Shown here: positions 3,119 through 58,537 of the stretch, one piece after another
Layout: each line of letters begins with the position of its first letter
Numbering within the stretch: the first letter of the stretch is position 1
Assembly: GCA_963825525.1 (NCBI GenBank)
Contig: CAWGTN010000002.1
Location: 640,001-704,000, forward strand
From: an uncultured Chloroflexia bacterium
GTDB lineage: Bacteria > Chloroflexota > Limnocylindria > QHBO01
DNA: 64,000 bases
Reading direction: 5' to 3'
Position numbers and translations under genes: made by a program
The notes under the pieces: model-generated
What the model saw: only the letters and a program-made list of their open reading frames with translations
What the model was told of the DNA's origin: nothing
Database searches by the model: none

Positions 3119-3825
3119 AGCTTCTGCTGGTCGACGACGATCCGGAGATCCGTGCCTCGTTGCGCGTGGGTTTCGAGCTGCAATGGCGAGATGTGCACCT
3201 CCTCGAAGCCGCCAACGGTGCCGATGCCCTTCACGCCATCGAATTCGAGCGGCCTGACATCGTGTTGCTTGATGTGGGCCTGCCGGACATCGATGGCTAT
3301 GCGGTGCTCCGCGAGATTCGCGCCTTCTCCGAGGTGCCGGTGATCATGCTGACGGCACGAGACGAGCCGATCGACAAGGTGCGGGGCCTCGAGGCCGGAG
3401 CCGATGACTACGTCGGCAAGCCGTTCGACCACCTCGAGCTCATGGCCCGCGTGCGGGCGGTCCTGCGGCGCATGGATGTGAAGGCGCCGCTGTCCGGGGT
3501 TGCCACGTACCGGCGAGGGGAGCTCGAGATCCACTCCGATGCACGCGAGGCTCGCGTCGGCGGCGCTCGCATTGCCCTCACCTCGACCGAGTGGCGCATC
3601 GTCGAGATTCTCGTCGCCAACGCCGGCTGGATCGTTCCGTACGATCGGATCGCGAACCGGGTCTGGGGGAGGGATGAGCCCTCCGACCTCGACTCACTGC
3701 GGGTGTTCATCCGTCGCCTCCGATCGAAGTTCGGTGATGACGCATCGGCCCCCCGCTACATCGAAACAGCCCGCGGGGTCGGGTATCGGCTTCTCAGCGG
3801 CGACCAGGACCAGCCCGATGGATGA
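3115..3825 (+). CDS. OmpR/PhoB-family response regulator
   Basis: LLVDDD, LLDVGLP, GADDYVGKPF, C-terminal IETARGVGY; ATGA overlap with kinase. Confidence 0.95.
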   Translation: MKLLLVDDDPEIRASLRVGFELQWRDVHLLEAANGADALHAIEFERPDIVLLDVGLPDIDGYAVLREIRAFSEVPVIMLTARDEPIDKVRGLEAGADDYVGKPFDHLELMARVRAVLRRMDVKAPLSGVATYRRGELEIHSDAREARVGGARIALTSTEWRIVEILVANAGWIVPYDRIANRVWGRDEPSDLDSLRVFIRRLRSKFGDDASAPRYIETARGVGYRLLSGDQDQPDG

Positions 3826-5038: not shown

Positions 5039-5115
5039 TGGGGTGGCCTACGGGGCTTGAACCCGTAACCTTCGGAGCCACAATCCGATGCTCTACCGAT
5101 TGAGCTAAGGCCACC
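5039..5115 (-). tRNA. tRNA-His (GUG)
   Basis: GGTGGCCTTAGCTCAATCGGTAGAGCATCGGATTGTGGCTCCGAAGGTTACGGGTTCAAGCCCCGTAGGCCACCCCA: cloverleaf, G-1:C73, encoded CCA. Confidence 0.97.
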
Positions 5116-5206: not shown

Positions 5207-5467
5207 TCAGTCGCGGCGCATCGAACGCAGGACGAACAGGACGAGGATCGAGCCGATCGTCGCGAGGACCAACGCGCCGAGCCACCCCGACGCCTCGTTC
5301 TGGTTGAGCACGTTGACCCACAGGAAGCCGCCGATAAAGCCGCCGACGATGCCCACCAGCATGGTGCCGATGCATCCCATTCGCTCCCGCCCCGGGACGA
5401 AGAAGCCCGCCAGCGCGCCGGCGAGCAGGCCGATGATGATCCAGCCAAAGATCCCGAGATCAGGCAT
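5207..5467 (-). CDS. GlsB/YeaQ/YmgE family stress-response membrane protein
   Basis: WIIIGLLAGALA...GIVGGFIGG, 3 TM pattern; RBS GAAGGAGAG. Confidence 0.9.
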   Translation of the reverse strand: MPDLGIFGWIIIGLLAGALAGFFVPGRERMGCIGTMLVGIVGGFIGGFLWVNVLNQNEASGWLGALVLATIGSILVLFVLRSMRRD

Positions 5468-5560: not shown

Positions 5561-6046
5561 CTACGGAGCCGGCGCAGGACCGGTCATGTCGAGGACGATG
5601 CTCCCGGACACCACGTCGGTGGCGATGCGCTCGAGCGCAGGATCGCTGGGGTCGAGCGGGAATCCGCTGAAGTCCCAGGCGCGGCCGTCGCAGTCCAGGA
5701 GGCGATCCGCGCCGATCTCGACGGGGCAGCCTTCACGTCCAGGGCTCGCGGCATTCACCGCGCTGAACGCGCCGGTCGCCGAGGGCGCGACGATGACCGA
5801 CACCTGGACCCGTCCCGACCCGGCCTCGCGCTCGCCGGACCATCCCCCGGACCGGCTCAGGACGAGGTCGCGACGAATCGGTCCGCCGGCGAGCTGGGTC
5901 ACGGATGCCACCGTGACGACGGCGTCGTCACGGGGCGGGGCAACGCTGAAGATCGCTGGCCGCACGAGGAGCGCCACGGCGACGACGGCCAGGGCCACGA
6001 ACAGGCAGCCGACGGCCGCTCGGCGAAACGGAGGCGGATCATCCAT
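5561..6046 (-). CDS. Membrane-anchored Rieske-like protein lacking Fe-S ligands
   Basis: N-terminal TM; AVNAASPGREGCPV...LLDCDGRAWDFSG parallels Rieske boxes I/II. Confidence 0.6.
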   Translation of the reverse strand: MDDPPPFRRAAVGCLFVALAVVAVALLVRPAIFSVAPPRDDAVVTVASVTQLAGGPIRRDLVLSRSGGWSGEREAGSGRVQVSVIVAPSATGAFSAVNAASPGREGCPVEIGADRLLDCDGRAWDFSGFPLDPSDPALERIATDVVSGSIVLDMTGPAPAP

Positions 6047-8722: not shown

Positions 8723-10045
8723 ATGATCAAGTTCCGAATGGCAGCCCCATTCATGGTGGCGGTGCTGGCGCTGAGCGCGTGCACCGGAGACAGCGGCAGC
8801 AGCGGCAGCAGTGGTGGCGACGGCAGCGACGCCGATGTGCCCGAGGGCAATGGCAGCATCGTCGTGACGTCGCTGTGGGGCGGCGCCGAAGAGGCGGCCT
8901 TCCAGGCCGTGCTCGACGCGTTCGAGGCCAAGACCGGCATCGTCGCGGAATACGAGGCAAACCGAACCGACTACGCGACCGTGCTCCGCACGCGCATCAC
9001 CGGTGGCGAGCCGCCGGACGTCGCGATCATCCCGGGTATCGGGACGCTGCGTAGCCTGGCACGCGACGGGTCGCTGATCTCGATCGCCGAGCTCGGCCTC
9101 GACCAGTCCTCGTTCGAAGGCAATTACGCCCCGGGCATCCTGGACGTCGGCGTCGTCGACGACGAGCTGTACGGGATCATGGTCAAGCTGAATTCCAAGG
9201 CGACCATCTGGTACAGCCCTGAGCGGTTCACCGAGATGGGCGTCGAGCCGGCCACGGACTTCGAGGGCCTGCTCCAGCTGACCGAGGACATCAAGGCAAC
9301 CGGCGCGACCCCGTGGTCACTGGGTGCCGGCGACAGCTGGACGCTGACCGACTTCTTCGAGGTTGCCTACCTCAAGATGCACGGGCCCGAGGCGTACGAC
9401 ACGCTGTTCAGCCCTGATGGCGACTGGACCGACGCGACGGTGCAGGCCACCATCGACAAGATGACCGAGCTGTACACCGACGACAACGTCGAGGGCGGCA
9501 TCGATGGTGCCATCGCCACGCTCTTCGTGGACGGCATCAGCAAGGTCTTCAGCACGAGCCCGTCGGCCGAGCTGTACTACGAGGGCGGATTCGTCGGCGG
9601 CATCGCCACCGGCGCTGACGTCAACCCCGACCTGGCGGGCCAGGAAGGCGATGCCATCAACTGGTTCGACTTCCCGACCATCGACGGCAACGGCGAAGGT
9701 CTCGTGACCTACGGCGGCGACGTCATGGCGGCCCTGGTGGCGGACACCGACGTCGCGGCGTTCATGGAGTACCTCACCACGGCTGAGGCCGGACAGGTCT
9801 GGGCCGAGGGCGGCACGATCATCTCGCCGATCGTCGACGTCGACACCAGCGTGTACCCGACCGTGCTGATCCAGGCCGAGGCCGAGCAGGTCACGTCCGC
9901 CGAGGCCGTGCGCTTCGACGGTTCCGACCTCCTTCCCGGCACCGACCTGGGAGCGGTGCTGCAGTCCGCGATCCGTGGAGACGACATGGGACCGATCCTG
10001 GAAGAGTTCCAGACCCTGACCGCCGCCGCGTGGGCAAGCGAGTAG
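8723..10045 (+). CDS. Sugar ABC substrate-binding lipoprotein (alpha-glucoside AglE-like)
   Basis: Lipobox LSA-C; SBP1-like sequence; RBS GGAGG. Confidence 0.9.
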   Translation: MIKFRMAAPFMVAVLALSACTGDSGSSGSSGGDGSDADVPEGNGSIVVTSLWGGAEEAAFQAVLDAFEAKTGIVAEYEANRTDYATVLRTRITGGEPPDVAIIPGIGTLRSLARDGSLISIAELGLDQSSFEGNYAPGILDVGVVDDELYGIMVKLNSKATIWYSPERFTEMGVEPATDFEGLLQLTEDIKATGATPWSLGAGDSWTLTDFFEVAYLKMHGPEAYDTLFSPDGDWTDATVQATIDKMTELYTDDNVEGGIDGAIATLFVDGISKVFSTSPSAELYYEGGFVGGIATGADVNPDLAGQEGDAINWFDFPTIDGNGEGLVTYGGDVMAALVADTDVAAFMEYLTTAEAGQVWAEGGTIISPIVDVDTSVYPTVLIQAEAEQVTSAEAVRFDGSDLLPGTDLGAVLQSAIRGDDMGPILEEFQTLTAAAWASE

Positions 10046-19633: not shown

Positions 19634-20798
19634 TCACGTGCTCCGCAGCGCGGTCACGGGGTCGAGCCGCGCGGCGCGCAGCGCCGGATAGATGCCGGCC
19701 AGTGCACCCAGGATCGTGGCGAACAGGAAGCTCCGCAGCAGGAGCCAGGGGGTGAGGAGGAACACGCTCGTCCCCGATCCGGCCGTCTGCGCGTTGAGGA
19801 TCAGCACGAGCAGCGCCCCGAGCCCCAGCCCGAGGAGCCCGCCGATGGCCCCGAGCAGCGTCGCCTCGATGAGGAACTCGCGCAGGATGGCCCGTGTCGG
19901 AGCGCCGACCGCCTTCTTGATGCCGATCTCGCGCACGCGCTCGCTGACCGTCATCACCATCGTGTTGATGACCGAGAGCCCGCCGACGATGACCGCGATG
20001 ACGCTGGCCCCCACGATGATGAGGTTGAAGACGATGCTGGCCTGGCCGATCTGGTCGGCGACCTCCTCCGGGGTGACGGCACGCACGCCATCGACGGCGT
20101 CGGTGATCGCGGCGGCGATCGCATCGGCCTCGCCAAGGTCCTCGGGGAATACCTCGATCTGGGTCGCCAGGGCATCGGTCCGTTCCTGGAAGGCGTCCGG
20201 CACGGACGCCACGTAGATCTGCTGCGCATCGGCCAGTGGCACGTAGGCGATCTTGTCGGGGAAGGTCAGCGTCCGCTCGAGCACCCCGACGACGTCGAAC
20301 GACTCGTCGCGCATCGTGAACGTGTCGCCGACTCGCAGATCGTAGCGCTCCGCCAGGTCAGCGCCGATCACGGTGACGCCGTGCTCATCGGCCCCCAGCA
20401 GCCGGCCGGCGTCCAGCCGAAGCTCGACCGCCTCGTCGTACCACGTCTCGGGCTCGATGCCGGTGAGGAGCTCAGGGATGTCGAACCCGCCGACCTCGTC
20501 CGGGTTCAGCGAGCGTCTGGAGCACCGGCGTGGCGCGATCGACGCCGGGCAGCTCCTCGATCTTCTCGACCAGGTCGCGCGTGACCGGCCGCGAGCTGGC
20601 CTGGAACCCTGACGCGGCGCCCTCGTCGAACACGAAGATGCGCGTTCGGAAGTACTCGTCGCCACCGTCCACCAGGACGTTGAGCTTCTCGGCCAGCGCC
20701 CCCATCACCGTCAGCGCGAACACGCCGATCACGATCCCGAGAATCGTGAGGGCGGTGCGCAGCGGACGCCGCCAGATATTGCTGATGGCTTCGTTCAT
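19634..20798 (-). pseudogene. FtsX/MacB-type ABC permease, one frameshift (~20510)
   Basis: RRPLRTALTILGIVIG N-terminus; ERVREIGIKKAVGA and YPALRAARLDP C-terminus in another frame. Confidence 0.78.
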
Positions 20799-20886
20799 GG
20801 GCTACGCGGATGCTAGCCGGGATCGGCGCTCGCCGCCCGAGGACCACCGGCGCGATCGATGCGGCCATTCGGATACGCTGGCGGGC

Positions 20887-21415
20887 ATGGAAGAGCACAC
20901 GATCTCAAGCACGCGTCCGTGGAGCGGGCGAACGGGTGCGCGTCCGGGTCGACGCCGTCGAGCGTTCGGACGGGCATCGCACCACCCGCGAGGTGATCGA
21001 ACATCCCGGCGCGGTGGCCATCCTCGCCTGGGACGGCGCGCGGCTGGCGATGGTCCGGCAGTGGCGTCACGCGACCGGTCAGGAGCTGCTCGAGATCCCC
21101 GCCGGCACGCTGGAGCCTGGCGAGCCTCCTGGGGAGACGGCCCGGCGTGAGCTGGCCGAGGAGATGGGCCTGGCCGCCGAGACGTGGGTCAGGGGGCCGT
21201 CCTTCTACACGGCCCCGGGGTTCTGCACCGAGCTCATGCACCTGTTCCTGGCCACGGATCTCCGCGATGCACCCGGCGAAGCCGACGCCGATGAGCGCCT
21301 CGACCCCTCCTGGATGGACCTGGCCGATGCCCTGGCGGCGGTCGACGATGGCCGAATCATCGATGCCAAGACCATGGCCGCGGTCGGCTGGCTGGAGCGA
21401 CGCCTCCGAGACTGA
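20887..21415 (+). pseudogene. NUDIX hydrolase (ADP-ribose pyrophosphatase-like), frameshift ~20931
   Basis: REVIEHPGAV, EIPAG, ARRELAEEMG; MEEHTISS N-terminus in another frame. Confidence 0.8.
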
Positions 21416-21425
21416 ACCCGCGGGG

Positions 21426-21441
21426 TGGCACGCCGGTTGCC
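21426..21441 (+). promoter_or_regulatory. sigma54-type -24/-12 promoter (TGGCACGCCGGTTGCC)
   Basis: Match to TGGCACG-N4-TTGC, 13 nt upstream of ATG 21454. Confidence 0.75.
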
Positions 21442-21453
21442 ATGCAGCGTCAC

Positions 21454-22539
21454 ATGACACTCGAGCTCGACGATCCACAGGCGGCCGCGGAAGACGCGGG
21501 GCTTCGCTACGTGTCCGACCTGATGCCGGGCGTTCGCCGTCGACGCGCCGGGAAGGGCTTCACGTACATCGGGCCGGACGGCAGCAGGATCACCGACGAC
21601 GCTCGGATCGCCTGGTTCCGTCGCCTCGCCATCCCCCCGGCCTGGACGGACGTGTGGATCTCTCCGGTCAAGAACGGGCACATCCAGGCCATCGGACGCG
21701 ACGCGCGGGGACGAAAGCAATACCGCTATCACCCGCGATGGCGCGAGGTGCGCGACCAGGCGAAGTACGGCCGGTTGATCGAGTTCGCGCGGGCACTACC
21801 CCGGATCCGGCGTCGGACCGAGCGCGACCTTCGACGCCGGGGCCTTCCGCGCGAGAAGGTGCTGGCACTCGTGATCCGGCTGCTCGAGGCCTCGCTCATC
21901 CGGGTCGGCAACGACGAGTACGCGCGAGAGAACCGCAGCTACGGCCTGTCGACGATGCGCGACCGCCACGTCGAGGTTCGTGGCGCGCGGATCCGGTTCC
22001 GGTTCCGCGGCAAGTCGGGGAAGGAGCACGAGGTCGAAGTGCTCGACCGCCGGCTGGCCCGCCTCGTCAAGCAATGCCAGGAGCTGCCCGGCCAGGAGCT
22101 CTTCCAGTACCTGGACTCCGACGGGGCTCGGCAGGATGTGACGTCGGGCGACGTCAACGACTATCTGCGCGAGGCCAGCGGTGACGACTTCACTGCCAAG
22201 GACTTCAGGACGTGGGCGGGCACCGTCGCCGCATCCATGGCACTCCAGGAGTTCGTCGAGATCGACGACGAGGCCGGACGAAAGAAGGCGATCGTGCGGG
22301 CAATCGAGGACGTGGCCGAACAGCTCGGCAACACGCCGACCGTGTGTCGGGCCTGCTACGTCCATCCGGACGTGCTCGACTCCTATCTGGACGGGACGTT
22401 GATCGAAGCACTGTCCGAGCGTGCCCGTGGGATCGGGCGCGGGGCCCACGCCCTCCGGCGCGAGGAAGCCGCCGTGCTGGGGCTCCTCCAGGCACGTCTG
22501 GCACGCGAACGCCGAGCGGGACGCCGCGAAGCCGCCTGA
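21454..22539 (+). CDS. Bacterial (poxvirus-like) DNA topoisomerase IB
   Basis: AIPPAWTDVWI, GRKQYRYH, IRVGN, FRGKSGK, KDFRTW, LGNT, CYVHP; catalytic residues intact. Confidence 0.95.
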   Translation: MTLELDDPQAAAEDAGLRYVSDLMPGVRRRRAGKGFTYIGPDGSRITDDARIAWFRRLAIPPAWTDVWISPVKNGHIQAIGRDARGRKQYRYHPRWREVRDQAKYGRLIEFARALPRIRRRTERDLRRRGLPREKVLALVIRLLEASLIRVGNDEYARENRSYGLSTMRDRHVEVRGARIRFRFRGKSGKEHEVEVLDRRLARLVKQCQELPGQELFQYLDSDGARQDVTSGDVNDYLREASGDDFTAKDFRTWAGTVAASMALQEFVEIDDEAGRKKAIVRAIEDVAEQLGNTPTVCRACYVHPDVLDSYLDGTLIEALSERARGIGRGAHALRREEAAVLGLLQARLARERRAGRREAA

Positions 22540-22545
22540 CGTCGA

Positions 22546-22926
22546 TCAGGCGGCGCGGATGACGCGCTCCAGGGCCCGCCGATACGTCTCGTTCTCCGGA
22601 TCGAGCAGGACGGCCATCCGCAGGTGGCGCCGGGCGGCCATGGCGTCCCCCAGCCGCGCGCTCGACAGACCGAGGCCGAAATGCGCGTAGTGGGCAACCG
22701 GGTCGGCGTCCACGATGGCGGCGAACCGCCGGGCGGCGGACGCGTGGTCACCCTGGTTGAAGTACGCCTGGCCGAGAGCTTCCAGGATCGACGCCTTCCC
22801 CGGCTCGAGGGCAAGAGCTCGTTCGAGCAGCACGGCCGCAGCCCCGGGATGGCGCTCGGCGAGCATCCGTGTCCCGCGCTGGAACAGCTCGTAGGCAGAT
22901 TCGCGAGATTCGGGACTGGGTTCCAT
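22546..22926 (-). CDS. Tetratricopeptide repeat protein
   Basis: TPR-like helices (ALGQAYF...AHFGLG). Confidence 0.8.
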   Translation of the reverse strand: MEPSPESRESAYELFQRGTRMLAERHPGAAAVLLERALALEPGKASILEALGQAYFNQGDHASAARRFAAIVDADPVAHYAHFGLGLSSARLGDAMAARRHLRMAVLLDPENETYRRALERVIRAA

Positions 22927-22935
22927 GCGTTCAGC

Positions 22936-23967
22936 CTAGCGCCGCAGGTCGATGCGCTCCAGCCGCGGATTCTCGGTGCGGCCGGGGATCCGCCCGCGCT
23001 TCGCGACCGGGCGACCATCGATCTCCTTGAGATCGCCGGTGAAGTCGATGGGGCTGGCCTTGCTGATGTAGCTGCCGACGGCGTACGAGTCCACCGGCGC
23101 GCCCGCGTCCCTGAAGACGCCGATGCGGTCCACGTCGATCCCACCCGAGACGACGATCTTGACGTTGGGGTGGCCTGCCTGGTCGAGCCGCGCGCGGACC
23201 TCCTTGACGAGCTCGGGCGTGACCCGCCCGCGCTCGCTGGGCGTGTCCAGGCGAACCCCCCACAGCCGATCTCCCAGGGCCTCGGCAACGCGCAGCGACT
23301 CCTCCGCCTCGTCCTTGAACGTGTCGACCAGCACGATGCGCGGCACGTCCGGATCGATGTGGCGATCGAATGCCTCGGCGGCGCGCACGGTGTCACCGAA
23401 GATGAGGACGAGCGCGTGCGGCATCGTCCCGGTCGGCGAGAGCCCCGCCAGTCGCGCCCCGGCCGGCGTCGAGGCGCCGATGCAGCCGCCCACCACGCTG
23501 GCATAGTCCATCTGGTCGGCGACGCTGGGGTGGACGTGGCGCGCCCCGAATCCGATGACCGGAACGGGCGCCGCGGCGTCCACGATGCGCCGAGCGGCGG
23601 TGGCCCAGCCTGATCCCGAGGCCAGGATGCCGAGGATCGCAGTCTCGTACAGCCCGAATGCCGAGTAGCGCGCCTGGATGCGGAGAACGACCTCCTTCGA
23701 ACCGAACCCGTCCCCGTCATGGAGGGACTCGACGATCGGCTCCGTGGCGCCGTTGGACTCCGCGAAGATCTCGCGCAGGTACGCGAGTGCCTCTTCCGCG
23801 CCGCACAGCACGCCCTCGCCGCGCGAGAAGATCTCCATGGTCACGAGCGGATCAAGGTTCTCGGCGGCCAGGATCGTCCGCGCTCGCTCGAAGTAGACGT
23901 CAGCGGTCTCGCCCGACAGCACGTCGGCGGCCGGCAGGAAGTGGGGCGATGGTCGCTCGGCGGTCAT
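22936..23967 (-). CDS. pncB: Nicotinate phosphoribosyltransferase
   Basis: ADVYF, FGARH, GTMPHA, LVDT, GVRLDTP, SGG, KRGR. Confidence 0.9.
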   Translation of the reverse strand: MTAERPSPHFLPAADVLSGETADVYFERARTILAAENLDPLVTMEIFSRGEGVLCGAEEALAYLREIFAESNGATEPIVESLHDGDGFGSKEVVLRIQARYSAFGLYETAILGILASGSGWATAARRIVDAAAPVPVIGFGARHVHPSVADQMDYASVVGGCIGASTPAGARLAGLSPTGTMPHALVLIFGDTVRAAEAFDRHIDPDVPRIVLVDTFKDEAEESLRVAEALGDRLWGVRLDTPSERGRVTPELVKEVRARLDQAGHPNVKIVVSGGIDVDRIGVFRDAGAPVDSYAVGSYISKASPIDFTGDLKEIDGRPVAKRGRIPGRTENPRLERIDLRR

Positions 23968-25898
23968 GGGGCAGTGTAGGCCGCGCGTCGCCGGAAGAGA
24001 ACCACGGCCAGCGCCGCCAGGACGACGACCACCAGGCCGGCACTGATCGCCCGCGCCCATCCACCGGCCTCGGCCGAGTCGATGATGCGCTGCGCCTCGC
24101 CGATGGCCTCGACCGAGCCCCGCAGGTCGCCATCGGCGAACCGGCCATTGGCCAGCGCGAGCTGCTGCGCCGGATCCTGCCCACCGATCAGACCCAGGCG
24201 CTCCAACAGCGAGCGTGGGGCGTTCACGGCGCCTCCCGTCGCAACGTAGGTCCGCACGACGGCGCGCTCGGCCTCGAGCTCGTCCTGCGCCTCCGGGCCG
24301 CCGCCGAACGATCGATAGGCCTGCTGCAGCCGCTCGGGCGCCGAGAGCCCGGCGGCTCGCATCTCTTCGAGCAGCGCATCGCGATCATCGAGCCAGGCGG
24401 CCGCATCGGCGATCCGGCCGCTCGCCTCGTCGAACTCCCACGCAACCATGACCGCGCGGATCGGGTCCGGCGCCCCCCATCCACCGGCGTGCTCGACCAG
24501 CGCGTCGAACTCGTCGCGCGCCTCGCGGCGTGCCGGGAGCAGGGCACGATCAGCGTCGGTGAACACGGACTGTGCAAATCGGTCCGAGACGTCAACGCCA
24601 CTCACGGTCTCGAGCTGGTCGAGGAAGGATCGACTCGTGAGCGGCGTCACGGGCTGAGTTCCCTCGGCCGGAGTATCGGTGCCGATGTCCCGCACTGCAT
24701 ATGGCCCGACCGACGCGGCGACGCGCGCGAGGGTGGCACGCAGCGCATCCGGCCCGACGGCCTCGCCCAGGTCCGCCATGAGCGCCCAGGCGGCGGCGTG
24801 CGCATAGCTCTCGGCGTCCGCCGTCTCGGCCGCGGACCAGGAGTCGAGCGGCAGCGCAGCATCGGCGCGGTCCCTCGCCTCGACCGCGGGATCGTACGGA
24901 AGATCGATCTCCAGGTCCGCGCTGATGCGCGCCGCCGCCTCGCTGGCCATGCCCTCCCGGATCCAGCGGCTCTCGATGAGACTCGGGGACAACCAGACGT
25001 GCGCCGCCTGGTGGACGGCAGTGAACGGCGGCTGGTCGAACGCCACGAGGATCTCGGAGCCGGCGGTCGCGCGCTCGGCGAAGCCGCTCGCGTCGGATGC
25101 CACGGTCTCGGTCACCACCAGGCCACCGACTCGGGAGTACGGCAGGCCGATCTCCGCTTCCAGGAGCGGCAGCGCGCGCTCGAGGAGCGCCAGCGTCCGC
25201 TCGCCCCACGGCTCGTCATCGGCGAATGACCGCACCTGGAGGTCGGCCGTACCCCCGTCGAGCGGGACGTTGGCGTCGAAGGTGGAGTACTCGCCGGGGC
25301 GGATGGCCGTGATCTGGGCGAGCCAGCGCGACGGGTCGTCGATGGGACCGCTGACCAGCCGATCGCCGGACGGGGTCAGCGAGTCTCCGTCCACCCGGAC
25401 CTCGTAGCCGTCCGGAATCGTGACGCTCACCTCGCTCGCCGTCCCGAAGCTCCAGGCCGGGAACACGACGACGGACGGTCGAATCCTCAGGTCGGGATCC
25501 GACCCGTCAGTGAGGAGGTAGTCCAGCTGAATCTCGACGCTCTCCTCGTATCGGAGGTCCTCGCGCAGATCGATGGTGGCGATGCTCACGCCGTCATTGA
25601 CAGCGACCGTGGCGTCCAGCTCACCCTCGGGGTCGCTGGCCGTGACCTCGGTAACCCCATCGTGAACAGCGACCGTGATCGCGCTGAACGTGCTGAATTG
25701 GCCCGCCGGGTCGGGCGTGGTATTCGTGAAGGCGAAGGCAACCGAGACGCCGATCTCCCCGTCGTCGGGCCGCACGTCATAGGCCGCAGTCGACTCGAGG
25801 GTGTACGGCGCCGCGGCGACCGGCGCGGGCGCCACGTTGAGGGCGCCGACGATCACGATGGCCGCGACGAGCGACCTGACGCTGCGACGGACGATCAC
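23964..25898 (-). CDS. Secreted, C-terminally anchored gluzincin (M1/MA)-like protein with HQxxH
   Basis: Signal peptide; AVHQAAHVW...WIREGMA; C-terminal TM + RRR; GTGA overlap. Confidence 0.7.
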   Translation of the reverse strand: MIVRRSVRSLVAAIVIVGALNVAPAPVAAAPYTLESTAAYDVRPDDGEIGVSVAFAFTNTTPDPAGQFSTFSAITVAVHDGVTEVTASDPEGELDATVAVNDGVSIATIDLREDLRYEESVEIQLDYLLTDGSDPDLRIRPSVVVFPAWSFGTASEVSVTIPDGYEVRVDGDSLTPSGDRLVSGPIDDPSRWLAQITAIRPGEYSTFDANVPLDGGTADLQVRSFADDEPWGERTLALLERALPLLEAEIGLPYSRVGGLVVTETVASDASGFAERATAGSEILVAFDQPPFTAVHQAAHVWLSPSLIESRWIREGMASEAAARISADLEIDLPYDPAVEARDRADAALPLDSWSAAETADAESYAHAAAWALMADLGEAVGPDALRATLARVAASVGPYAVRDIGTDTPAEGTQPVTPLTSRSFLDQLETVSGVDVSDRFAQSVFTDADRALLPARREARDEFDALVEHAGGWGAPDPIRAVMVAWEFDEASGRIADAAAWLDDRDALLEEMRAAGLSAPERLQQAYRSFGGGPEAQDELEAERAVVRTYVATGGAVNAPRSLLERLGLIGGQDPAQQLALANGRFADGDLRGSVEAIGEAQRIIDSAEAGGWARAISAGLVVVVLAALAVVLFRRRAAYTAP

Positions 25899-26464
25899 AG
25901 GCGCGCCAGCAACCGAGTGAGAATGCCCCGCCGCGGCGTGCGAGGCCTTGGTGCCTCCCATGCCGGCATGGCCGACGTGACCTCGGCCCGATATCGCTCC
26001 AGCAGCGCTCGATTTCGGGACGCGCGCCCACCCCAATCCGGCAGGACGCCGCGATCGGCGACGGCCGTGGCGGTCTCCTCGAGAAGACGATCGGCAACGA
26101 TCGCGAGGCGAGCAACACCGCGTCCGAGCTCGTCCCGATTGACGGCCGCGGCCGGGAGCTCGGTCATGAGCATCGGTCGGTCGTCATCGGTCATCGCGAA
26201 CTTCACGAACGGGTAATCAAAATTGGCGCGCAGCATTCGGGCATAGATGCGTTTGGGGATCTCCATCGCCTCGAGCCCATAGTATGCCCACAGTGAGCAG
26301 CCGACCCCGTCGACCCACGCCACGGTCAGCCGCAGGTCAAAGCGCCGATCACCATCGACCATCAGATCCCGGCTGAATGCCGGATCGGCGGGGGCGCCGG
26401 CGCTGGCGATGATTTCGAGGCCGAGCTCGCTGAGCCAGCCGTCGATCGACGCTCCGTTGCTCAC
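25895..26464 (-). CDS. YbjN/T3SS-chaperone-like domain protein
   Basis: RMLRANFDYPFVKFAM pattern; coupled to glgC. Confidence 0.6.
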   Translation of the reverse strand: MSNGASIDGWLSELGLEIIASAGAPADPAFSRDLMVDGDRRFDLRLTVAWVDGVGCSLWAYYGLEAMEIPKRIYARMLRANFDYPFVKFAMTDDDRPMLMTELPAAAVNRDELGRGVARLAIVADRLLEETATAVADRGVLPDWGGRASRNRALLERYRAEVTSAMPAWEAPRPRTPRRGILTRLLARL

Positions 26465-27729
26465 CGGGGCGCGGTACCGGCCGTGATCGTCTCGCCCGAA
26501 CGGATGCGCCGGCGGCGCGCGAAGTCATCCTCGTTGGCGCCCGGGTCGATGCGACAGTTGCGACCAATCTCGACGCCGCGCGGCACGCGCGCGCGCTTGC
26601 CGACCAGCGTGATCCCCGCGTACAGGCGTTCGGGCTCGTCTCGGTTCGGGCGCATGTCCTCCCCCACCCCGACCTGTGCGCCGGCGCCGATCACGCACTC
26701 CTTGTCGAGGATCGCGCGATCCAGCACCGCATCGGCCTCGATGACGGCGTCGAACATGACGATCGAGTCGCGCACCACCGCGCCCGCCGCCACCCGCACG
26801 CCGGGTGACAGGATGCTGTGCTCCACCGTTCCATCGATCTCGCACCCGTGGCTGATCATCGAGCGGCTGATACGCGCGTTCGGGCCGATCCGCGCGGGCG
26901 GACGTTCCTCGCTCCGCGTGTAGATCAGCCAGCCGAGGTCGTTGAGCTGGATGTCCGGCTTGTCGCTCAGGAGGTCGAGGCTCGCCTGCCAGTAGCTCTC
27001 GACCGTCCCGACGTCCTGCCAGTAGCCAGCGAACTCGTAGGCGAAGACCTTGCGACCTTCCTTCACCATGGCGGGGAGGATGTCGCGACCGAAGTCGATG
27101 AGGTCGGTGCTCAAGAGATCTCGCAACAACGGCCAGCTGAAGACGTAGACGCCCATGCTGACGAGGTTCGACGGCGGATTCGGCGGCTTCTCGATGAACG
27201 CGGTCACCCGGCCGTCGTCGGCCACGTCCAGGATGCCGAACCGATGGGCCTCCTCGATGGGCACCGTGCGGACGGCGCACGTGACATCGGCGCCGGTCGT
27301 GCGATGCATCTCGATGAATGGCCGGTAATCCATCTTGTAGACGTGATCGCCCGCCAGCACCAGGACGAGCTCGGGATCGCGATCGGCGATGAAGTCGAGG
27401 TTCTGGAGGACCGCATCGGCCGTTCCGCGATACCAGTCACGGGCACGGCCGCGGCCGATGAACGGCTGCAGCAGGGCCGCGCCGCCCCGGCTGCGGTCCA
27501 GGTCCCACGGCCGGCCGACCCCGATGTGGTCGATGAGCGAGCGTGGGGCGTACTGCGTCAGGATCCCGACATCGGTCAGGCCGGAGTTCACCGCATTGCT
27601 CAACGCAAAGTCAATGATCCGGTACTTCCCGCCGAACGGCACGCCCGGCTTGGCGCGTACCTGCGAGAGGATGCTGAGACGCTCTCCCTCTCCGCCCGCG
27701 AGGATCAGCGTCAGGACCGAGCTCGACAC
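26461..27729 (-). CDS. glgC: Glucose-1-phosphate adenylyltransferase
   Basis: LAGGEGERL, RAKPGVPFGGKYR, GDHVYKMDY, YWQDVGT. Confidence 0.95.
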   Translation of the reverse strand: MSSSVLTLILAGGEGERLSILSQVRAKPGVPFGGKYRIIDFALSNAVNSGLTDVGILTQYAPRSLIDHIGVGRPWDLDRSRGGAALLQPFIGRGRARDWYRGTADAVLQNLDFIADRDPELVLVLAGDHVYKMDYRPFIEMHRTTGADVTCAVRTVPIEEAHRFGILDVADDGRVTAFIEKPPNPPSNLVSMGVYVFSWPLLRDLLSTDLIDFGRDILPAMVKEGRKVFAYEFAGYWQDVGTVESYWQASLDLLSDKPDIQLNDLGWLIYTRSEERPPARIGPNARISRSMISHGCEIDGTVEHSILSPGVRVAAGAVVRDSIVMFDAVIEADAVLDRAILDKECVIGAGAQVGVGEDMRPNRDEPERLYAGITLVGKRARVPRGVEIGRNCRIDPGANEDDFARRRRIRSGETITAGTAPR

Positions 27730-27750
27730 ACCGTGAATTCTACGGCCACG

Positions 27751-30514
27751 TCAGCCATCCGACGTCACTAGGGTGCGGGAGCGCGTCGGTACCGGGACGC
27801 CTCCGCCGCCGCCGCCTCCGCCGCCTCCGCCTCCGCCGCCGCCTCCGCCGCCTCCGCCGCCACCGCTCGGCTTGGGGGTCGGCTCGGCGCTCGGCTCGGC
27901 CGATGACGATGGGCTGGGCCGCGGGGTGGCCACGCGCTCACCGCACACCGAGGGGAAGCCTGACTCGCCGTAGATGGGTGCGATCTGGAACAGGACGCGC
28001 TCGTCATCGGCGTACGTGGACGGGTCACCTCGGGCTCCGGTCTGTCCGTTGACGACGCGATCTGCCCAGGTGTCTGCCCCTTCGATCCAGTTCTGCGGAC
28101 GGTCCGGCGTGGCCTGGCCCAAGTACTGCTCGAGGTCCAGGCAGCCCTTGGTGTGCAGGTTGTCGAGGCCAGGCACCGTTCCTTCGAGGAACGGAAGGGT
28201 GATGATCTTCCCGCACGAGTTCGTGGCCGCCAAGCCGGTCCAGCGACAGACGGGCGCCGTGACGATGCCATCCGGCTGCGGGAAGCTGGTCTGCGGGACG
28301 GGAGCCTGGCCGTTCCAGTCCCACGGGTTGTTGAGCGCAAGGTCCATGAACTCGTGCCACAGGAAGAGCGGTCCATCGGCGCTGAAGAGGCCGCCGGAGA
28401 ACTCGTTCGAAAGCGACTCCTGGTTGTTATTGCCCATCCAGACGCCCGACAGCGAGGCTGCCGGGAATGTATCCGAAGCCGGAGACGTCTCGGAAGTCGT
28501 TCGTGGTCCCGGTCTTGAAGCCGGCCGGGCGGCGCTGGCCGTCCGGCGTGATGAGCTGCGCGCGCTCGCCCCACAGCAGGTTCCGGGCGGGGTCGGTATT
28601 GCCCTCGAGGATGTAATGCGGCAGATATGCCTCGGCCGGGGTCATCGGATTCGTGACTGTTGGACCGTTGTCCTCGCGGGTGTAGATCACGCGATTGTCG
28701 CGGTCGCGAATCTCGATGATCGTCGTGGCCGGGTTGAGCTGGCCCTCCTGCGCGAAGGTCGTGTATGCCTGCGTCATGTTCGTCAGGTTGACCGGCACGG
28801 AGCCCAGCGCCAGGGAGAGGCCGGGATCCTGGTCCATGATGTACTCGGCGCTGGCGATGCCCAGCTACTCGCTGAACTCGGCCGTGGTCTGCGACCCGAC
28901 CAGGTACTGCATCATCACTGACGGGATGTTGAGGGAGTAGCGCAGGGCGTCCAGCGCGAGCACCGGACCGTGCTCCTTGATGTCGGCGTTCGTCGGCCGG
29001 TAGGACGTCTCCTCGGTCAGCCCGAACTGGGTCATGGAGTCGACGAACATCGTGGCCACGGTGGCGTCACGTGACTGGAATGCCGAGGCGTACGTGATCG
29101 GCTTGAAGGCTGATCCCGGCTGGCGTCGGCCGAGCCCGGCCACGTCGAACTGGCCCTGGACCCGCGGATCCTCGCGATTTCGATAGTCGACGCTGCCCAC
29201 GTACGAGACGATCTCGCCGGTGGCCGAATCGATGGCAACCAGCGCCGAGTTGTTCACGTTGAAGCCGGCCAAGGTCTCCACCCACTTCGCCACCAGCCGC
29301 TTCGCCTCCTGCTGGAGCGGCAGGTCGAGGGTCGTCTTGATTCGATACCCGCCGGTGAGAACCTCGAGCGCAGGATCCGTCACACCGGGCAGGGTGCCAA
29401 TGATGCGCTCGGCCTCCTTGCGCACCCGGAAGCTGAAATGCGGCTCGCGCAGGAGGCTCGTGAGACGGCTCGGGTTCATCTCGACCCACGAGGTGTTGCG
29501 CGCGACGCGCGCCTCGGCCGCCGTGATGTAGCCCTCCTCGACCATCGCTCCAAGGACGAGGTTGCGCTCGCGGAGCGCATCGGCTGCCCCCGCCTCGGGG
29601 TCATCAAGGGTGGAGTTCGGGTTCTGGTAGGGGTCGAGGAATGACGGCGCCTGCGGCAGAGCGGCGAGGAAGGCGGCCTGAGCGACCGTCATCTGCTCGA
29701 GGTCCTGGAGCCCGAAGTAGTTCGCGGCGGCGGCCTTGATGCCGTACGAGCCATTCCCGTAGTAGATGAGGTTCAGGTATGTCTCGAGGATCTTCTCCTT
29801 GCCCTCACGGCCCGGATACGCCGCGGTGACCTGCATCGCCAAGATGTTCTCGCGAATCTTGTCCTCGATGGCGGTCGAGTTATTGGGCTCGGGCGGCTGG
29901 CAGACATCGGTCTCCTCCTCGGCCGGATCCTCCTCGGTCACCGGAGCATCGGGATCGATCTCGCCGACGCTGGCCTCAGGTGTCGCGCTGGGGTCGACCT
30001 GGTTGACACCCTCCTCCTTCAGGACGCGGGCGTAGTCGATGACCTGCTGGGTGATGGTCGATGCGCCCTGCACGATCCGTCCCTCCTCGAGGTTGCGGAG
30101 CGCGGCGCGGACAATGCCCTGGAAGTCGACCCCGTTGTTGTCCCAGAACGTTCGGTCCTCGCTGGCGACGGTCGCCTGCCAGATGTGGTCGGGCAGGGTG
30201 GCGAACGTGACGGCCTCTCGGTTCTGGCACTCGAAGCGTGCCAGCAGCTCGTTGCCGGTGCGGTCGTAGACGTAGGTCGACTGCTGGGGCTCGATGCCAT
30301 CCAGGACATTCGGGGCGGGGAGGTCCGACGCGAAGTAGTTGTAGGCGGCCAGCATGCCACCCGCCGTGCCGAGGATCGATCCGGTGAACATCAGCCCGAA
30401 CACGCCGAGCGTGACGAGCATGAAGGTTGCAAGCCCACGGCGCTGCCCGCCGCGTCGCGTGGTGCGGCGCGTCATCATCAGATGACGTCGGCGCCGCTGG
30501 AGAGCCGGATGCAT
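27751..30514 (-). pseudogene. Class A penicillin-binding protein (PBP1A), in-frame TAG at 28865-28867 and frameshift ~28446
   Basis: SEDRTF, GASTITQQ, QPGSAFKP, SLN, KTGT motifs across three ORFs. Confidence 0.85.
27800..27865 (-). repeat. GGC/GGA trinucleotide run encoding poly-Gly tail of PBP
   Basis: About 22 consecutive Gly codons. Confidence 0.9.
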
Positions 30515-30561
30515 CGGGCGAAGGGTACCAGTCGTGCGGGGCGCGGTCGAATGCGCGCCGC

Positions 30562-31200
30562 TCAGCGGATGACGCGAAGGACTCGTTCGTCGAGCAGCAT
30601 GATCAGGACGGCGCCACCGACCAGGAATGGCCCGAACGGGATGTACGTGCGCAGCCCCACCCGACGGGTGGCCAGCAGCACCAGGCTGGTTCCTGCCGAC
30701 AGAAATGCGGCGGCGAACAGGGCGCTGAAGATCGACGGCCAGCCGAGCATGAGCCCGATGGGCGCCACCAGGTACAGGTCACCGAGCGCAAGCCCCCCGC
30801 GGACGATGAGCGCCAACGCCCCGAGGAACCCCACGGCGGCCGCCGCACCGACCAGCGCCATCACGGGGTCGACCGCCGGATTGAACGGCACGAAGGCGAA
30901 GCCCAACAGGATGAGCGGATCCAGGACGAGATGCGGGAGGCGCCGCTGCTCGAGATCCGTGGCCGTCAGGACGAGCAGCAGGCCGAGGAGGACGAGGTAG
31001 GCTGCGGTGGCCCACCACGGCAGCGCGGAACGTCCCGCGATTCCGGCCGCCACCAGTCCACTCACCAGCGCCAGCACGACGGTGCGCCAGCCAGGCGACC
31101 GCCGCCGCGCTTCGTCACTCGGCCACACGCTGGCGAGGCGTTCGGCCAGCGCACCGGCAACCGCAAAGGCCGCCCCGATGCCGATGATCGCCGGATTCAC
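30562..31200 (-). CDS. A24 prepilin peptidase
   Basis: ATDLEQRRLP, ALGDLYL, IPFGPFL; multi-TM. Confidence 0.85.
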   Translation of the reverse strand: MNPAIIGIGAAFAVAGALAERLASVWPSDEARRRSPGWRTVVLALVSGLVAAGIAGRSALPWWATAAYLVLLGLLLVLTATDLEQRRLPHLVLDPLILLGFAFVPFNPAVDPVMALVGAAAAVGFLGALALIVRGGLALGDLYLVAPIGLMLGWPSIFSALFAAAFLSAGTSLVLLATRRVGLRTYIPFGPFLVGGAVLIMLLDERVLRVIR

Positions 31201-31321
31201 GCTCGTCTTCGCCCTCGCTGCGTTCGGTGGCCACGCGCCCGGTGCGTCGCGGCACCGCCCATCGTACGAGCCATGCGGGGGGCGGCCATAGCCCGATCGT
31301 CCACCTCGCACAGCGCGAATC

Positions 31322-31337
31322 TGGCACGCCGGATGCG
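31322..31337 (+). promoter_or_regulatory. sigma54-type -24/-12 promoter (TGGCACGCCGGATGCG)
   Basis: GG-N10-GC; shares TGGCACGCCGG with the topIB promoter. Confidence 0.65.
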
Positions 31338-31389
31338 ATGCGTTGCTGCGCCGGCACAGGCCGGCTCACCGCATGGGAGGAACACCATC

Positions 31390-31575
31390 GTGGACAGTGA
31401 CCGCGTCGAGGGCCCCCTCAAGGAGGCCGGAGGCAAGATCAAGGAAGAGTTCGGCGACCTCACCGACAATGCCGACACCGAGGCCGAGGGCAAGGCCGAC
31501 CAGGTCGAAGGCAAGGTCCAGAACGAGTGGGGCGAAGCCAAGGACGACGTGCGCGACGCGACCGACGATCGCTGA
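31390..31575 (+). CDS. csbD: CsbD family general stress protein
   Basis: DRVEG..KEAGGKIKEEFGDLTD...EGKADQVEGKVQ; RBS GGGAGG, GTG start. Confidence 0.9.
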   Translation: MDSDRVEGPLKEAGGKIKEEFGDLTDNADTEAEGKADQVEGKVQNEWGEAKDDVRDATDDR

Positions 31576-31585
31576 GCAGCCGATG

Positions 31586-31617
31586 ACGAAGCCCCGGCCG
31601 CGCGGCCGGGGCTTCGT
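31586..31617. terminator. Stem-loop between convergent csbD and pepA
   Basis: ACGAAGCCCCGGCC-gcgc-GGCCGGGGCTTCGT. Confidence 0.8.
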
Positions 31618-31635
31618 GCTCTCGTCATCCGGAGC

Positions 31636-33111
31636 TCAGCCCCCTTCGAAGGCGAGAGCCAGCGCAACGAGCGCGGCGACCCCCGAGCCGGTTGCTCCCT
31701 TCGGCCCGTAGGGCTTCTCCGTGCTCAGGTAGGCGGTCGACGCGATGTCGACGTGCACCCACGGGACGGTGACGAACTCGGAGAGGAAGACGGCGCTCTT
31801 GATGAGCGACCCGTCGCGACCGCCGGAGTTGACGATGTCGGCGTGGGGAGTGTCGTAGGCCGCCCGATACTCCGCGGCGAGCGGCATCTCCCAGAACCAC
31901 TCCCCCGCTCGCTCCGCCGCCGCCCCGATCCGCTCGCCCCATTCGCGGGGTCGGGCGAAGTAGGCACTGATGTGCTCTCCGAAAGCGATGGCCTGAGCGC
32001 CGGTCAGGGTCGCCACGTCCACGATGTGGGTCGCTCCCTGGCGCTCGGCCCAGGTCATGGCATCGGCGAGGATGAGGCGGCCCTCGGCGTCGGTGTTGGT
32101 GACCTCGACGGTCATGCCGTTCATCGCCTTCACGACGTCGCCGGGTCGTTGCGCGTTGCCGCCCGGCATGTTCTCGACCATCGGCGCCACGGCCATCAGC
32201 GGGGTCTCCGGCGCCAGGCGCGCCACGGTCCGAGCGGCCGCGATGACTGCCGCGGCACCGGACTTGTCGTGCTTCATGTCCCCCATGTTCTCGGCCGGCT
32301 TGATGCTGATGCCGCCGGAATCGAAGCACACGCCCTTGCCGACGATCGCCAGCCGCTCGCCACTCGCGGCGGCTTCCCAGCCCGGCAGCTTGATCGCGAT
32401 GAGGCGCGGCCCGTGGGTGGCGCCCTGCCCGACGCCGAGGATCAGGTTCATCCCCAGCTTCGCCATCTCGTCGGGATCCAGGATCTCGACCGTGCACCCA
32501 TCGGCCTCGAGGGCACGCGCCTCCTCGGCCATGCGCTCGGGGTAGAGGTCGTTCGCCGCGCGGTTGGCGAGGTCGCGGCCGAATGCCACACCGGCACCGA
32601 TCTCGGCCCCGCGGTCCAGGGCTTCCTGGGAGCCGGCGCCGACGCACAGGACCTCCTCCACCGAGCGCTTCATGGCGTCGGTGTCCCGCACCCGCCCATA
32701 GACGTCGGTGGAGCGGTAGGTACCGGCCACGGCACCGGCCGCGGCCGCCGCCCACGCGTCATCATCCTCGCCGTCGCGCAGCCAGAGCGCCAGGATCCGC
32801 GCCGCGCGGCCATTCAGCCGTCGCGTGGCCGCCGCCGCCATGCGTCGCGCTCGCCACGGCCCGCGCCCGCGAGATCCCGCGTTGATCAGAAGCAGGTGGT
32901 CGACTGACAGGTCGCCGGCGTCGACCAGGGCCACGGGGTGCTCGATGGGGTTGAACTCACCCCAGCTGATGGCGCGCGAGATGGCGCCGCCGGAGGCCGT
33001 GTCGAGCTCAGCCAGGTCCGCGGCCATGTCCGTGTCCTCTCGGTAGATCGGGACAGCCAGGACGTCTGCCTCGACCGAGGCGGGCGGGCCGGAAATTGCG
33101 CGCAGCCGCAT
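31636..33111 (-). CDS. pepA: Leucyl aminopeptidase (M17)
   Basis: VGKGVCFDSGG, MKHDKSG, NTDAEGRL, ATLTGA. Confidence 0.95.
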   Translation of the reverse strand: MRLRAISGPPASVEADVLAVPIYREDTDMAADLAELDTASGGAISRAISWGEFNPIEHPVALVDAGDLSVDHLLLINAGSRGRGPWRARRMAAAATRRLNGRAARILALWLRDGEDDDAWAAAAAGAVAGTYRSTDVYGRVRDTDAMKRSVEEVLCVGAGSQEALDRGAEIGAGVAFGRDLANRAANDLYPERMAEEARALEADGCTVEILDPDEMAKLGMNLILGVGQGATHGPRLIAIKLPGWEAAASGERLAIVGKGVCFDSGGISIKPAENMGDMKHDKSGAAAVIAAARTVARLAPETPLMAVAPMVENMPGGNAQRPGDVVKAMNGMTVEVTNTDAEGRLILADAMTWAERQGATHIVDVATLTGAQAIAFGEHISAYFARPREWGERIGAAAERAGEWFWEMPLAAEYRAAYDTPHADIVNSGGRDGSLIKSAVFLSEFVTVPWVHVDIASTAYLSTEKPYGPKGATGSGVAALVALALAFEGG

Positions 33112-57702: not shown

Positions 57703-57703
57703 C

Positions 57704-58537
57704 CTATGGCTCTTCTGCCGGCTCCTCTTCGAGCTCGGGCTCACCGGAGTATTCGGGAAGGCTTGTGTCGAGCTCCTCGACCTCCTCCGAGTCCTCGTCG
57801 GTCTCCTCGACCTCTTCGTCGTCATCGTAGCGAAGAGCAGAGCCCTTCATATACGGTCTGACGCTCGTTGCGGCCTGTCCCTGCGTCGGGAAGGAGACCT
57901 TTCCGAAGTTATTCGGGTGGGTGAAGACCTCCCGAATGATGATGAGCAGCTCTCCGCCGCCCTCGTGGATGGTCGTGATGGCCCCCTCGTAGCGGTTGCC
58001 GGCGGCCATCAGCTTGGTGAGGCGAGCGGCAACCCGGGGTTCGACCATGCCGATCTCGGTGGCTCCCACGCTCGCCACGAGCTCATCTCCCCTGGCCTGC
58101 AGCGCAACCGCGTCGCCGGCAGACAACGGGGCGAGCGCACGCGGCGCAGCGAGGTTGATGAGACGCGCGCGACCCGTCTTGCCCATCTCTTCGATGAACA
58201 GCGTCACCGGGGCCTTCTCGGGGCGACCCTTGCCGTTGGCGGCGGGTCGGCTGGCGGCCATCATCACTCGGAGCCGCTCGATGTTCCGCTGAGCGATCCG
58301 GTTGGTGGCGTCGCGCTCGAGCGCCTGCTCGTAGGCCGCGATGGCCTCCGCGTGACGGCCTAGCTCAGCGAGCGCCTTTCCCAGGCGATTCGAGGCATCG
58401 ATATCGGGCCCCAGCTCGAGAAGCTGGCGGTTCGCCGTGACCGCTTCCTCCCATTCGCCCCGCGTCGCATGCGCGATCGCGGCGTCCGCAAGCTGTCGTC
58501 GTTGTCGTGTCGTTGTTTCAGCTTCTCCAAGCGCCAT
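57704..58537 (-). CDS. TPR protein with HIRAN-like domain and acidic tail
   Basis: N-terminal TPRs; GDAVAL...IGMVEPRVAARL..LM..GNRYEGAI; D/E-rich C-terminus. Confidence 0.8.
   Translation of the reverse strand: MALGEAETTTRQRRQLADAAIAHATRGEWEEAVTANRQLLELGPDIDASNRLGKALAELGRHAEAIAAYEQALERDATNRIAQRNIERLRVMMAASRPAANGKGRPEKAPVTLFIEEMGKTGRARLINLAAPRALAPLSAGDAVALQARGDELVASVGATEIGMVEPRVAARLTKLMAAGNRYEGAITTIHEGGGELLIIIREVFTHPNNFGKVSFPTQGQAATSVRPYMKGSALRYDDDEEVEETDEDSEEVEELDTSLPEYSGEPELEEEPAEEP

Follow-up and report, generated by a model that had tools for sequence, protein, structure and literature searches.

Conserved sigma-54-type elements ahead of topIB and csbD in an uncultured Limnocylindria bacterium: putative promoters and a predicted leaderless topIB transcript

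What kind of promoter drives topIB, the gene for DNA topoisomerase IB, in an uncultured Chloroflexia bacterium, and is it shared with genes of the general stress response? The question arises from a stretch of 64,000 nucleotides (nt) of contig CAWGTN010000002.1 (assembly GCA_963825525.1, positions 640,001 to 704,000), here called the window. In it, topIB (21454..22539, + strand; Pfam PF01028 and PF21338) is preceded by TGGCACGCCGGTTGCC, which reads TGGCACG-N4-TTGC and resembles the -24/-12 element of promoters that depend on sigma-54 (RpoN). A first-pass annotation, made from the sequence alone, had pointed to this string, to a similar one ahead of csbD and to a third ahead of a yeaQ/glsB-family gene, and had suggested an RpoN-driven general-stress regulon. 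Judging from sequence comparison, we regard the elements of topIB and csbD as probably functional sigma-54-type promoters, with a probability of about 0.7. The yeaQ site is a candidate promoter only.

All three strings are present at the positions first reported, each with exact GG-N10-GC spacing (3/3). The topIB element occupies 21426-21441 (+), with GG at 21427-28 and GC at 21439-40. It begins 10 nt past the TGA of the adjoining upstream gene, which encodes a NUDIX hydrolase (20810..21415, +; PF00293), and its GC is 13 nt from the topIB ATG at 21454. The csbD element, TGGCACGCCGGATGCG (TGGCACG-N4-ATGC; 31322-31337, +), lies 53 nt, counted from its GC, ahead of the GTG at 31390. The candidate third element, CGGCACACGCCGTGCAA (5532-5516, - strand), is situated between the yeaQ gene and the stop (5561) of the gene upstream, 50 nt ahead of the yeaQ ATG (5467). 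The RpoN consensus has been quoted as YTGGCACGrNNNTTGCW (PMC13207237). We scored each GG-N10-GC on both strands of the window against TGGCAC-N5-TTGC, with a maximum of 10; the topIB element reaches 10/10 and is the top match of the window, followed by csbD with 9/10 and yeaQ with 8/10. The topIB and csbD sites had also been said to share 11 identical bases, and the exact 11-mer is indeed found twice in the window, against 0.14 expected; two copies were reached in 1 of 100 shuffles.

The case for the topIB and csbD elements depends on their conservation in relatives; the within-window case is weak. Species-representative genomes were scanned with the TopIB protein of the window, which gave 80 TopIB loci (designated by L and a number) from many phyla at 52-64% identity. 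Neighboring proteins of the window were then compared with these loci by tblastn. Four loci are syntenic with the window: L057, L066 and L040, labeled Candidatus Limnocylindria, and L013, labeled uncultured Chloroflexia. For L057, a match at 59-88% identity was obtained with 15 of the 18 window proteins queried. The NUDIX-topIB order is present in all four, and so is an element near topIB (4/4). The 16-mer ahead of topIB in L057 is the same as that of the window, and the neighboring bases differ. L013 carries TGGCATCGCTCCTGC (8/10) 14 nt from the topIB ATG, and L040 carries CGGCATACCGCTTGC (8/10) at 16 nt. In L066, the element CGGCACGCGCCGTGC (8/10) stands immediately past the NUDIX stop, and two small inserted genes separate it from topIB. 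The nearer one encodes a DUF6766 protein, and the element in front of it is nearly the same as the yeaQ string of the window.

The csbD element is kept in both of the other loci that hold csbD (2/2), as TGGCACGGACCCTGC in L057 and TGGCACGTGATCTGC in L066. The distance from GC to the start codon is 53 nt in the window, 55 nt in L057 and 54 nt in L066. When the csbD upstream regions are aligned, identity is concentrated in TGGCACG and TGC, and the surrounding sequence has diverged. Conservation of the motif upstream of orthologs, which the first-pass annotation had left to be checked, is therefore found for topIB in 4/4 and for csbD in 2/2 syntenic loci. Invariant GG and TGC, fixed spacing, diverging flanks and a kept distance to the start together support the view that both elements behave as functional -24/-12 promoters, as far as sequence can indicate. 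Further convincing sites scoring at least 8/10 were not found in L057, L013, L066, L040 or L019, where the coding labels come from a gene caller that over-extends open reading frames (ORFs) and are therefore unreliable.

The inserts between the NUDIX gene and topIB differ among the relatives. L066 has the DUF6766 membrane protein and a tiny ORF (1635-2210), and L013 has a YetF/DUF421 protein (9450-9968).

Beyond the syntenic relatives, the motif recurs before topIB more often than expected. In the 80 loci, we searched the 150 nt ahead of the aligned TopIB start for a match and compared the number of loci that had one with 200 dinucleotide shuffles. At a score of at least 8/10, the forward strand gave 20/80 loci, against 3.5 expected from background density, 5/80 on the opposite strand and a shuffle mean of 3.2 (maximum 8). 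At 9/10 or better, the corresponding values were 6 forward, 0.43 expected, 3 on the opposite strand and a shuffle mean of 0.36; at 10/10, they were 3, 0.03, 0 and 0.01. The opposite-strand matches include real divergent promoters in Acidobacteriota. Labels of the loci that bear the motif include Limnocylindria, Chloroflexia, Thermomicrobia, Ardenticatenaceae, Betaproteobacteria, Planctomycetota, Acidobacteriota and Kapaibacterium. The recurrence of a sigma-54-type element before bacterial topIB appears to be new. In the portions of the literature searched on topIB or csbD together with sigma-54, nothing direct was found beyond a single line of a Bradyrhizobium transcriptome: in Bradyrhizobium sp. 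DOA9, an alphaproteobacterium, DNA topoisomerase IB was among the genes whose differential expression was confined to the double rpoN mutant (PMC13207237).

Other 9/10 matches in these loci stand before genes of different kinds. One precedes an Hsp70 gene in L076 (755-769, -; Verrucomicrobiia), another a pirin gene in L030 (11767-11781, +; Betaproteobacteria) and a third an isochorismatase gene in L003 (2711-2725, -; Telluria).

The spacing between the element and the start codon adds a further regularity. In 81 sequences (the 80 loci and the window), we looked for an ATG placed 11-16 nt beyond a motif that scores 8/10 or more. This arrangement was found 12 times, each time with an open ATG in the TopIB frame; the count for the other two frames was 0. 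These 12 cases comprise 11 loci and the window, with GC-to-ATG distances of 12-16 nt. L021 provides a thirteenth in-frame case at 17 nt, and the start codon is ATG in 13/13. In the upstream alignment of the 13 sequences, GG and TGC are the sole invariant columns. Where tested, these ATGs begin full-length reading frames whose proteins have both domains of TopIB. In the window, the 13-nt spacer CATGCAGCGTCAC holds no GGAGG-like string that could serve as a Shine-Dalgarno sequence, and the sole other candidate start of topIB, ATG 21442, overlaps the -12 element. By the definition of -24/-12 promoters, transcription starts about 12 nt after the GC (PMC13207237; PMC2831329), and a transcript is termed leaderless when at most 5 nt separate the start site from the start codon (PMC12754779). 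With a start about 12 nt past the GC, the topIB ATG would therefore lie at +1 to about +6, and the transcript would be leaderless or nearly so. The suggestion of a leaderless sigma-54 transcript, already made in the first pass, thus gains support from these 13 sequences of several phyla, in which the start site is predicted from promoter geometry.

Leaderless mRNAs are also described in Deinococcus-Thermus, where a -10 box adjoins the ORF (PMC12340547). The likeness lies in a topIB start that is predicted at or near the AUG, again without a Shine-Dalgarno sequence; the promoter here, however, is of the sigma-54 type. The portions of the literature searched contained no description of leaderless sigma-54 transcripts, and a conserved promoter-ATG spacing that would imply such transcripts appears to be new. 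If the prediction is right, a leaderless sigma-54 transcript would join an activator-gated promoter to translation that is independent of a Shine-Dalgarno sequence.

From the motif, its conservation, its geometry and its recurrence, we infer sigma-54 binding, a start site, dependence on an activator and a stress signal, and we propose the following sequence of events. RNA polymerase carrying sigma-54 would form a closed complex on the GG and TGC and stay silent until a signal switches on an AAA+ enhancer-binding protein, which would be encoded outside the window. Transcription of topIB would start about 12 nt past the GC, at the ATG at 21454 or 1-2 nt ahead of it, and the leaderless mRNA would be translated without a Shine-Dalgarno sequence. 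Conversely, csbD and yeaQ would have leaders of about 40 nt with ribosome-binding sites. The elements share with canonical sigma-54 promoters the invariant GG and TGC, the 10-nt spacing and the extended TGGCAC/TTGC, and they likewise stand ahead of stress-related genes. Unlike canonical sigma-54 promoters, the topIB element abuts the start codon (12-16 nt from GC to ATG), and no activator gene or site is nearby.

Several observations weigh against sigma-54 as the factor that acts at these elements. Neither rpoN nor a gene for an enhancer-binding protein is present in the window, as had been noted in the first pass; Pfam on 66 ORFs, a six-frame motif scan and tblastn agree on this. The sole window match to an enhancer-binding protein by tblastn is a receiver domain at 3124-3528. 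The RpoN box was found neither in the window nor in the 80 loci (regular expression and tblastn), nor did any of the four syntenic loci yield an activator. No convincing 12-mer that might be an activator-binding motif is common to the upstream regions of the three window genes. Because the topIB promoter begins 10 nt past the NUDIX stop, any activator site of topIB would fall within the NUDIX coding sequence. As a matter of speculation, the activator might act without DNA binding. The recurrence has its contrary side as well. In 60 of the 80 loci, the 150 nt upstream of topIB lack any match that reaches 8/10, and among these are all six isolate genomes (L002, L003, L014, L052, L074 and L077; 0/6). 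The 20 matches also represent fewer than 20 independent events because the loci are related in groups.

The distribution of sigma-54 within the class is the most serious contrary point. In what follows, we take the KEGG orthology (KO) number K03092 to be rpoN, K03086 to be rpoD and K07714 and K07713 to be NtrC-family regulators. Sigma-54 and its activators have been reported in "some Chloroflexi" (PMC3162934), and, of 13 Chloroflexi species, 4 were found to have RpoN (PMC3372290). KO lists by lineage are given in supplementary file 2 of a study from 2026 that covers 236 genomes of Limnocylindria (PMC13212565). In the accessible part of this file, K03092 is listed for the lineages P2-11E and QHBO01, K07714 only for the same two, and K07713 in the P2-11E part. 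Among the KO entries listed there, K03092 occurs twice and K03086 seven times (PMC13212565), so that two of the four Limnocylindria lineages appear to be without sigma-54. The CSP1-4 list in that part has K03086, K03088, K03091, K03098 and K03100, without K03092 (PMC13212565). Sigma-54 therefore seems to be present in Limnocylindria but lineage-specific, and the lists suggest its loss in the CSP1-4/Limnocylindraceae branch. Sigma-54 use in Limnocylindria, including stress control in this class or in Chloroflexota, was not found described in the literature searched.

Should the genome studied here come from a lineage that has no rpoN, some other factor would have to recognize the conserved element. 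The element could then be a real cis-element read by a factor other than sigma-54, either the operator of a regulator or the promoter of another sigma factor. The absence of K03092 from the CSP1-4 list and, by count, from Limnocylindraceae, in the part of the file noted above (PMC13212565), is compatible with this explanation, as is the failure to find an activator or an activator-binding site in the window. In addition, the topIB site of the window forms a palindrome (TGGCA-N6-TGCCA), and its opposite strand scores 8/10. However, L057, L040 and L013 do not retain the palindrome, and no positions other than GG and TGC, which have sigma-54 spacing, are invariant. That the ATG follows at a constant 12-16 nt suits a promoter, not an operator. 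The same architecture stands before topIB in loci labeled Betaproteobacteria, Planctomycetaceae and Solibacteraceae, groups in which sigma-54 is usual (PMC3162934), and a protein with a Sigma54_activat domain adjoins topIB in Acidobacteriota. Another DNA-binding protein would need exactly the invariant positions of sigma-54, at the same place before the same gene. We consider this unlikely, though it deserves some weight.

It is also conceivable that the elements are relics, that is, ancestral or horizontally acquired sigma-54 promoters that fell out of use after rpoN was lost, with expression now supplied by read-through or by weak sigma-70 promoters. The apparently lineage-specific occurrence of sigma-54 within Limnocylindria (PMC13212565, in part) would fit such a history. 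So would the spread of the best TopIB relatives over many phyla at the identities given above, which suggests horizontal transfer, and the lack of a terminator between the NUDIX gene and topIB. A strict consensus scan for sigma-70 promoters over 20600-32000 gave 0 sites against 0.7 expected and so no competing signal, though such a scan is insensitive in high-G+C DNA. The 16-mer is nevertheless unchanged between the window and L057, a locus whose flanks differ and whose neighboring proteins share no more than 59-88% identity with those of the window, and L013, L040 and L066 retain the motif as well. The conservation in these four loci therefore points to ongoing selection, and we judge the relic explanation to be quite improbable.

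Chance resemblance is the explanation to which the counts within the window lend themselves. In DNA of 69% G+C, GG-N10-GC strings with GGCAC and TGC are common, and the three picked out in the first pass might simply happen to stand before genes. The loose patterns indeed occur at about the expected frequency: GGCAC-N6-TGC is seen 5 times against 4.1 expected, TGGCAC-N5-TTGC with at most one mismatch 3 times against 3.0, and the shared 11-mer with at most one mismatch 7 times against 5.0. With the window counts at chance level, enrichment of loose patterns cannot carry the claim. The scan of both strands yielded 22 matches of at least 8/10, mostly intragenic, namely one of 10/10 (topIB), two of 9/10 and nineteen of 8/10, yeaQ among them. 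Of the matches that stand before genes, the two with the highest scores are those of topIB and csbD. As 1 of 22 such matches, the yeaQ site is not significant alone, and tblastn found no yeaQ ortholog in the 80 loci, which leaves this site without comparative support. These counts, too, belong with the contrary points listed above. Against chance, all syntenic relatives examined have retained the motif ahead of topIB and csbD, with diverged flanks. The exact 11-mer is well above its expectation, the cross-phyla count is 20/80 against about 3.3, and 12/12 downstream ATGs are in frame. Because of these comparative data, chance is excluded for topIB and csbD but not for yeaQ, and as an account of the whole pattern it is very improbable.

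The 9/10 match of the window other than the csbD element, TGGCACCATCGATGC (9498-9512, -), lies antisense within a solute-binding-protein gene and is probably due to chance.

The weakest explanation, an RNA-level element, be it a structured leader or a hairpin, a terminator or an attenuator that acts on the NUDIX gene, could draw on a possible 5-bp stem in TGGCAcgccggtTGCCA, on the position of the site 10 nt past the NUDIX stop codon and on the fold of the csbD leader (z = -1.85; 9/200 shuffles fold as well), but it was rejected as hardly credible, since folding is not unusual (z = 0.46, -1.85 and -0.61; at the topIB site, where z = 0.46, 132/200 shuffles are at least as stable), the topIB site has neither a T-run nor a terminator-like match, no Rfam family matches any of the three sites, and the orthologs do not retain the complementarity of the stem.

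With sigma-54-type promoters as the preferred reading for topIB and csbD, the next question is whether they serve general stress control. Support for this comes from loci of Acidobacteriota. Among the 80 loci and the window, enhancer-binding proteins were found by six-frame motif scan and tblastn only in L038, L044, L047, L048, L061 and L071, all Acidobacteriota. Pfam on the activators of L038, L044, L047 and L071 gave REC, Sigma54_activat and HTH_8 domains, with a HisKA kinase encoded upstream. The kinase-activator pair is divergent from topIB, and the intergenic region carries back-to-back -24/-12 elements (cluster at 5296-11065 in L038). Motifs of 9/10 stand ahead of genes for BON lipoproteins (4 loci), DUF892/YciF-like proteins (3 loci) and DJ-1/PfpI proteins (2 loci). 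They also stand ahead of GT20/OtsA-like genes in 3 loci, with the kinase and activator genes following. In L059 and L080, short-chain dehydrogenase genes near topIB have 9/10 motifs.

Just past the activator gene, an imperfect palindrome, GGGAGGATGTATACTCCC or a variant of it, precedes the BON-gene -24/-12 element (about 5760-5780, -, in L038). It is found at the same place in L044, L047, L061 and L071 and is a candidate activator-binding site. This type of palindrome was not seen ahead of the DUF892 or PfpI genes.

The CsbD, YeaQ/GlsB, BON, DUF892, DJ-1/PfpI and OtsA-like families are typical members of SigB or RpoS (or EcfG) regulons elsewhere. In those regulons, small stress proteins (CsbD, Transgly_assoc, BON/OsmY-like, YciF-like DUF892 and DJ-1/PfpI) share one promoter type, as they may do here. 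In contrast to them, the promoter here is of the -24/-12 type and not the -35/-10 type of the sigma-70 family, and it would require an ATPase activator rather than the release of a sigma factor. The proposal that general stress is run through sigma-54 is supported in part. Stress-type genes do stand behind the motif, close to an NtrC-type activator, in Acidobacteriota, but the lineage of the window itself offers only two verified sites and one candidate. Sigma-54-type elements before CsbD-type stress genes in Limnocylindria, together with a parallel stress cluster with its activator in Acidobacteriota, appear to be new, as no account of them was met in the literature searched.

The Acidobacteriota arrangement of kinase, activator and topIB resembles the PexR/sigma-54 regulon for peroxide stress in Myxococcus xanthus, in which an enhancer-binding protein acts with sigma-54 and conserved promoters lie by the activator gene (PMC12754779). 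The targets differ: they are ahpC and katB in the PexR regulon (PMC12754779), and topIB, csbD and the BON, DUF892, PfpI and otsA-like genes here. Sigma-B and Sigma-S are named as general-stress background in PMC3162934, the main text of which makes no mention of topoisomerase, trehalose or osmY.

It is tempting to extend these observations to a wider hypothesis. To our knowledge, Chloroflexota and Acidobacteriota are not known for SigB, RpoS or EcfG systems. In phyla that lack them (Limnocylindria and other Chloroflexota, and Acidobacteriota), sigma-54 with a dedicated enhancer-binding protein might be the master switch of a regulon of the general-stress or desiccation type. Its members might include TopIB, CsbD, YeaQ/GlsB, BON/OsmY-like, YciF-like, DJ-1/PfpI and OtsA-like proteins and YdaD-like dehydrogenases, and its activator in Acidobacteriota would be of the NtrC two-component type. 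The leaderless topIB cassette of promoter plus ATG would then be conserved, and perhaps horizontally mobile, over at least six phylum-level groups. We offer this only tentatively and regard it as doubtful in its full extent. General stress control in these abundant soil phyla, Chloroflexota and Acidobacteriota, is little understood, and a conserved sigma-54 promoter would offer a testable candidate regulator. In Acidobacteriota, the kinase-activator pair adjoining topIB is a further lead. If the hypothesis is true, it would also give a regulatory context to bacterial topoisomerase IB, the cellular role of which is poorly understood.

Some features of the genes beside the elements may be added. 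The csbD-family gene (31390..31575, +; PF05532, E = 2.9e-18) encodes 61 amino acids (aa) and has a GTG start and a GGGAGGA ribosome-binding site. A 17-nt block, CCATAGCCCGATCGTCC (31286..31302, +), precedes the csbD -24 element by 20 nt. It occurs in a single copy in the window and is conserved in relatives, being the same in L066 and changed at 3 positions in L057. This block could be an activator site, or it could be the 5' end or ribosome-binding region of a divergent prepilin-peptidase gene. The predicted csbD leader contains a perfect 6-bp hairpin, GCCGGC-acag-GCCGGC (31350-31366, +).

The yeaQ/glsB-family gene (5207..5467, -; Transgly_assoc, PF04226) encodes a small membrane protein, and its ATG is preceded by the ribosome-binding site GAAGGAGAGA. 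Just downstream of it lies a tRNA gene (5042-5114, -; RF00005, 70.5 bits), the sole Rfam match in the window. Two long ORFs on the minus strand, 23964-26036 (690 aa) and 54961-57825 (954 aa), show good coding signal and gave no Pfam match at the thresholds used. Homologs of the 690-aa ORF are present in the syntenic loci.

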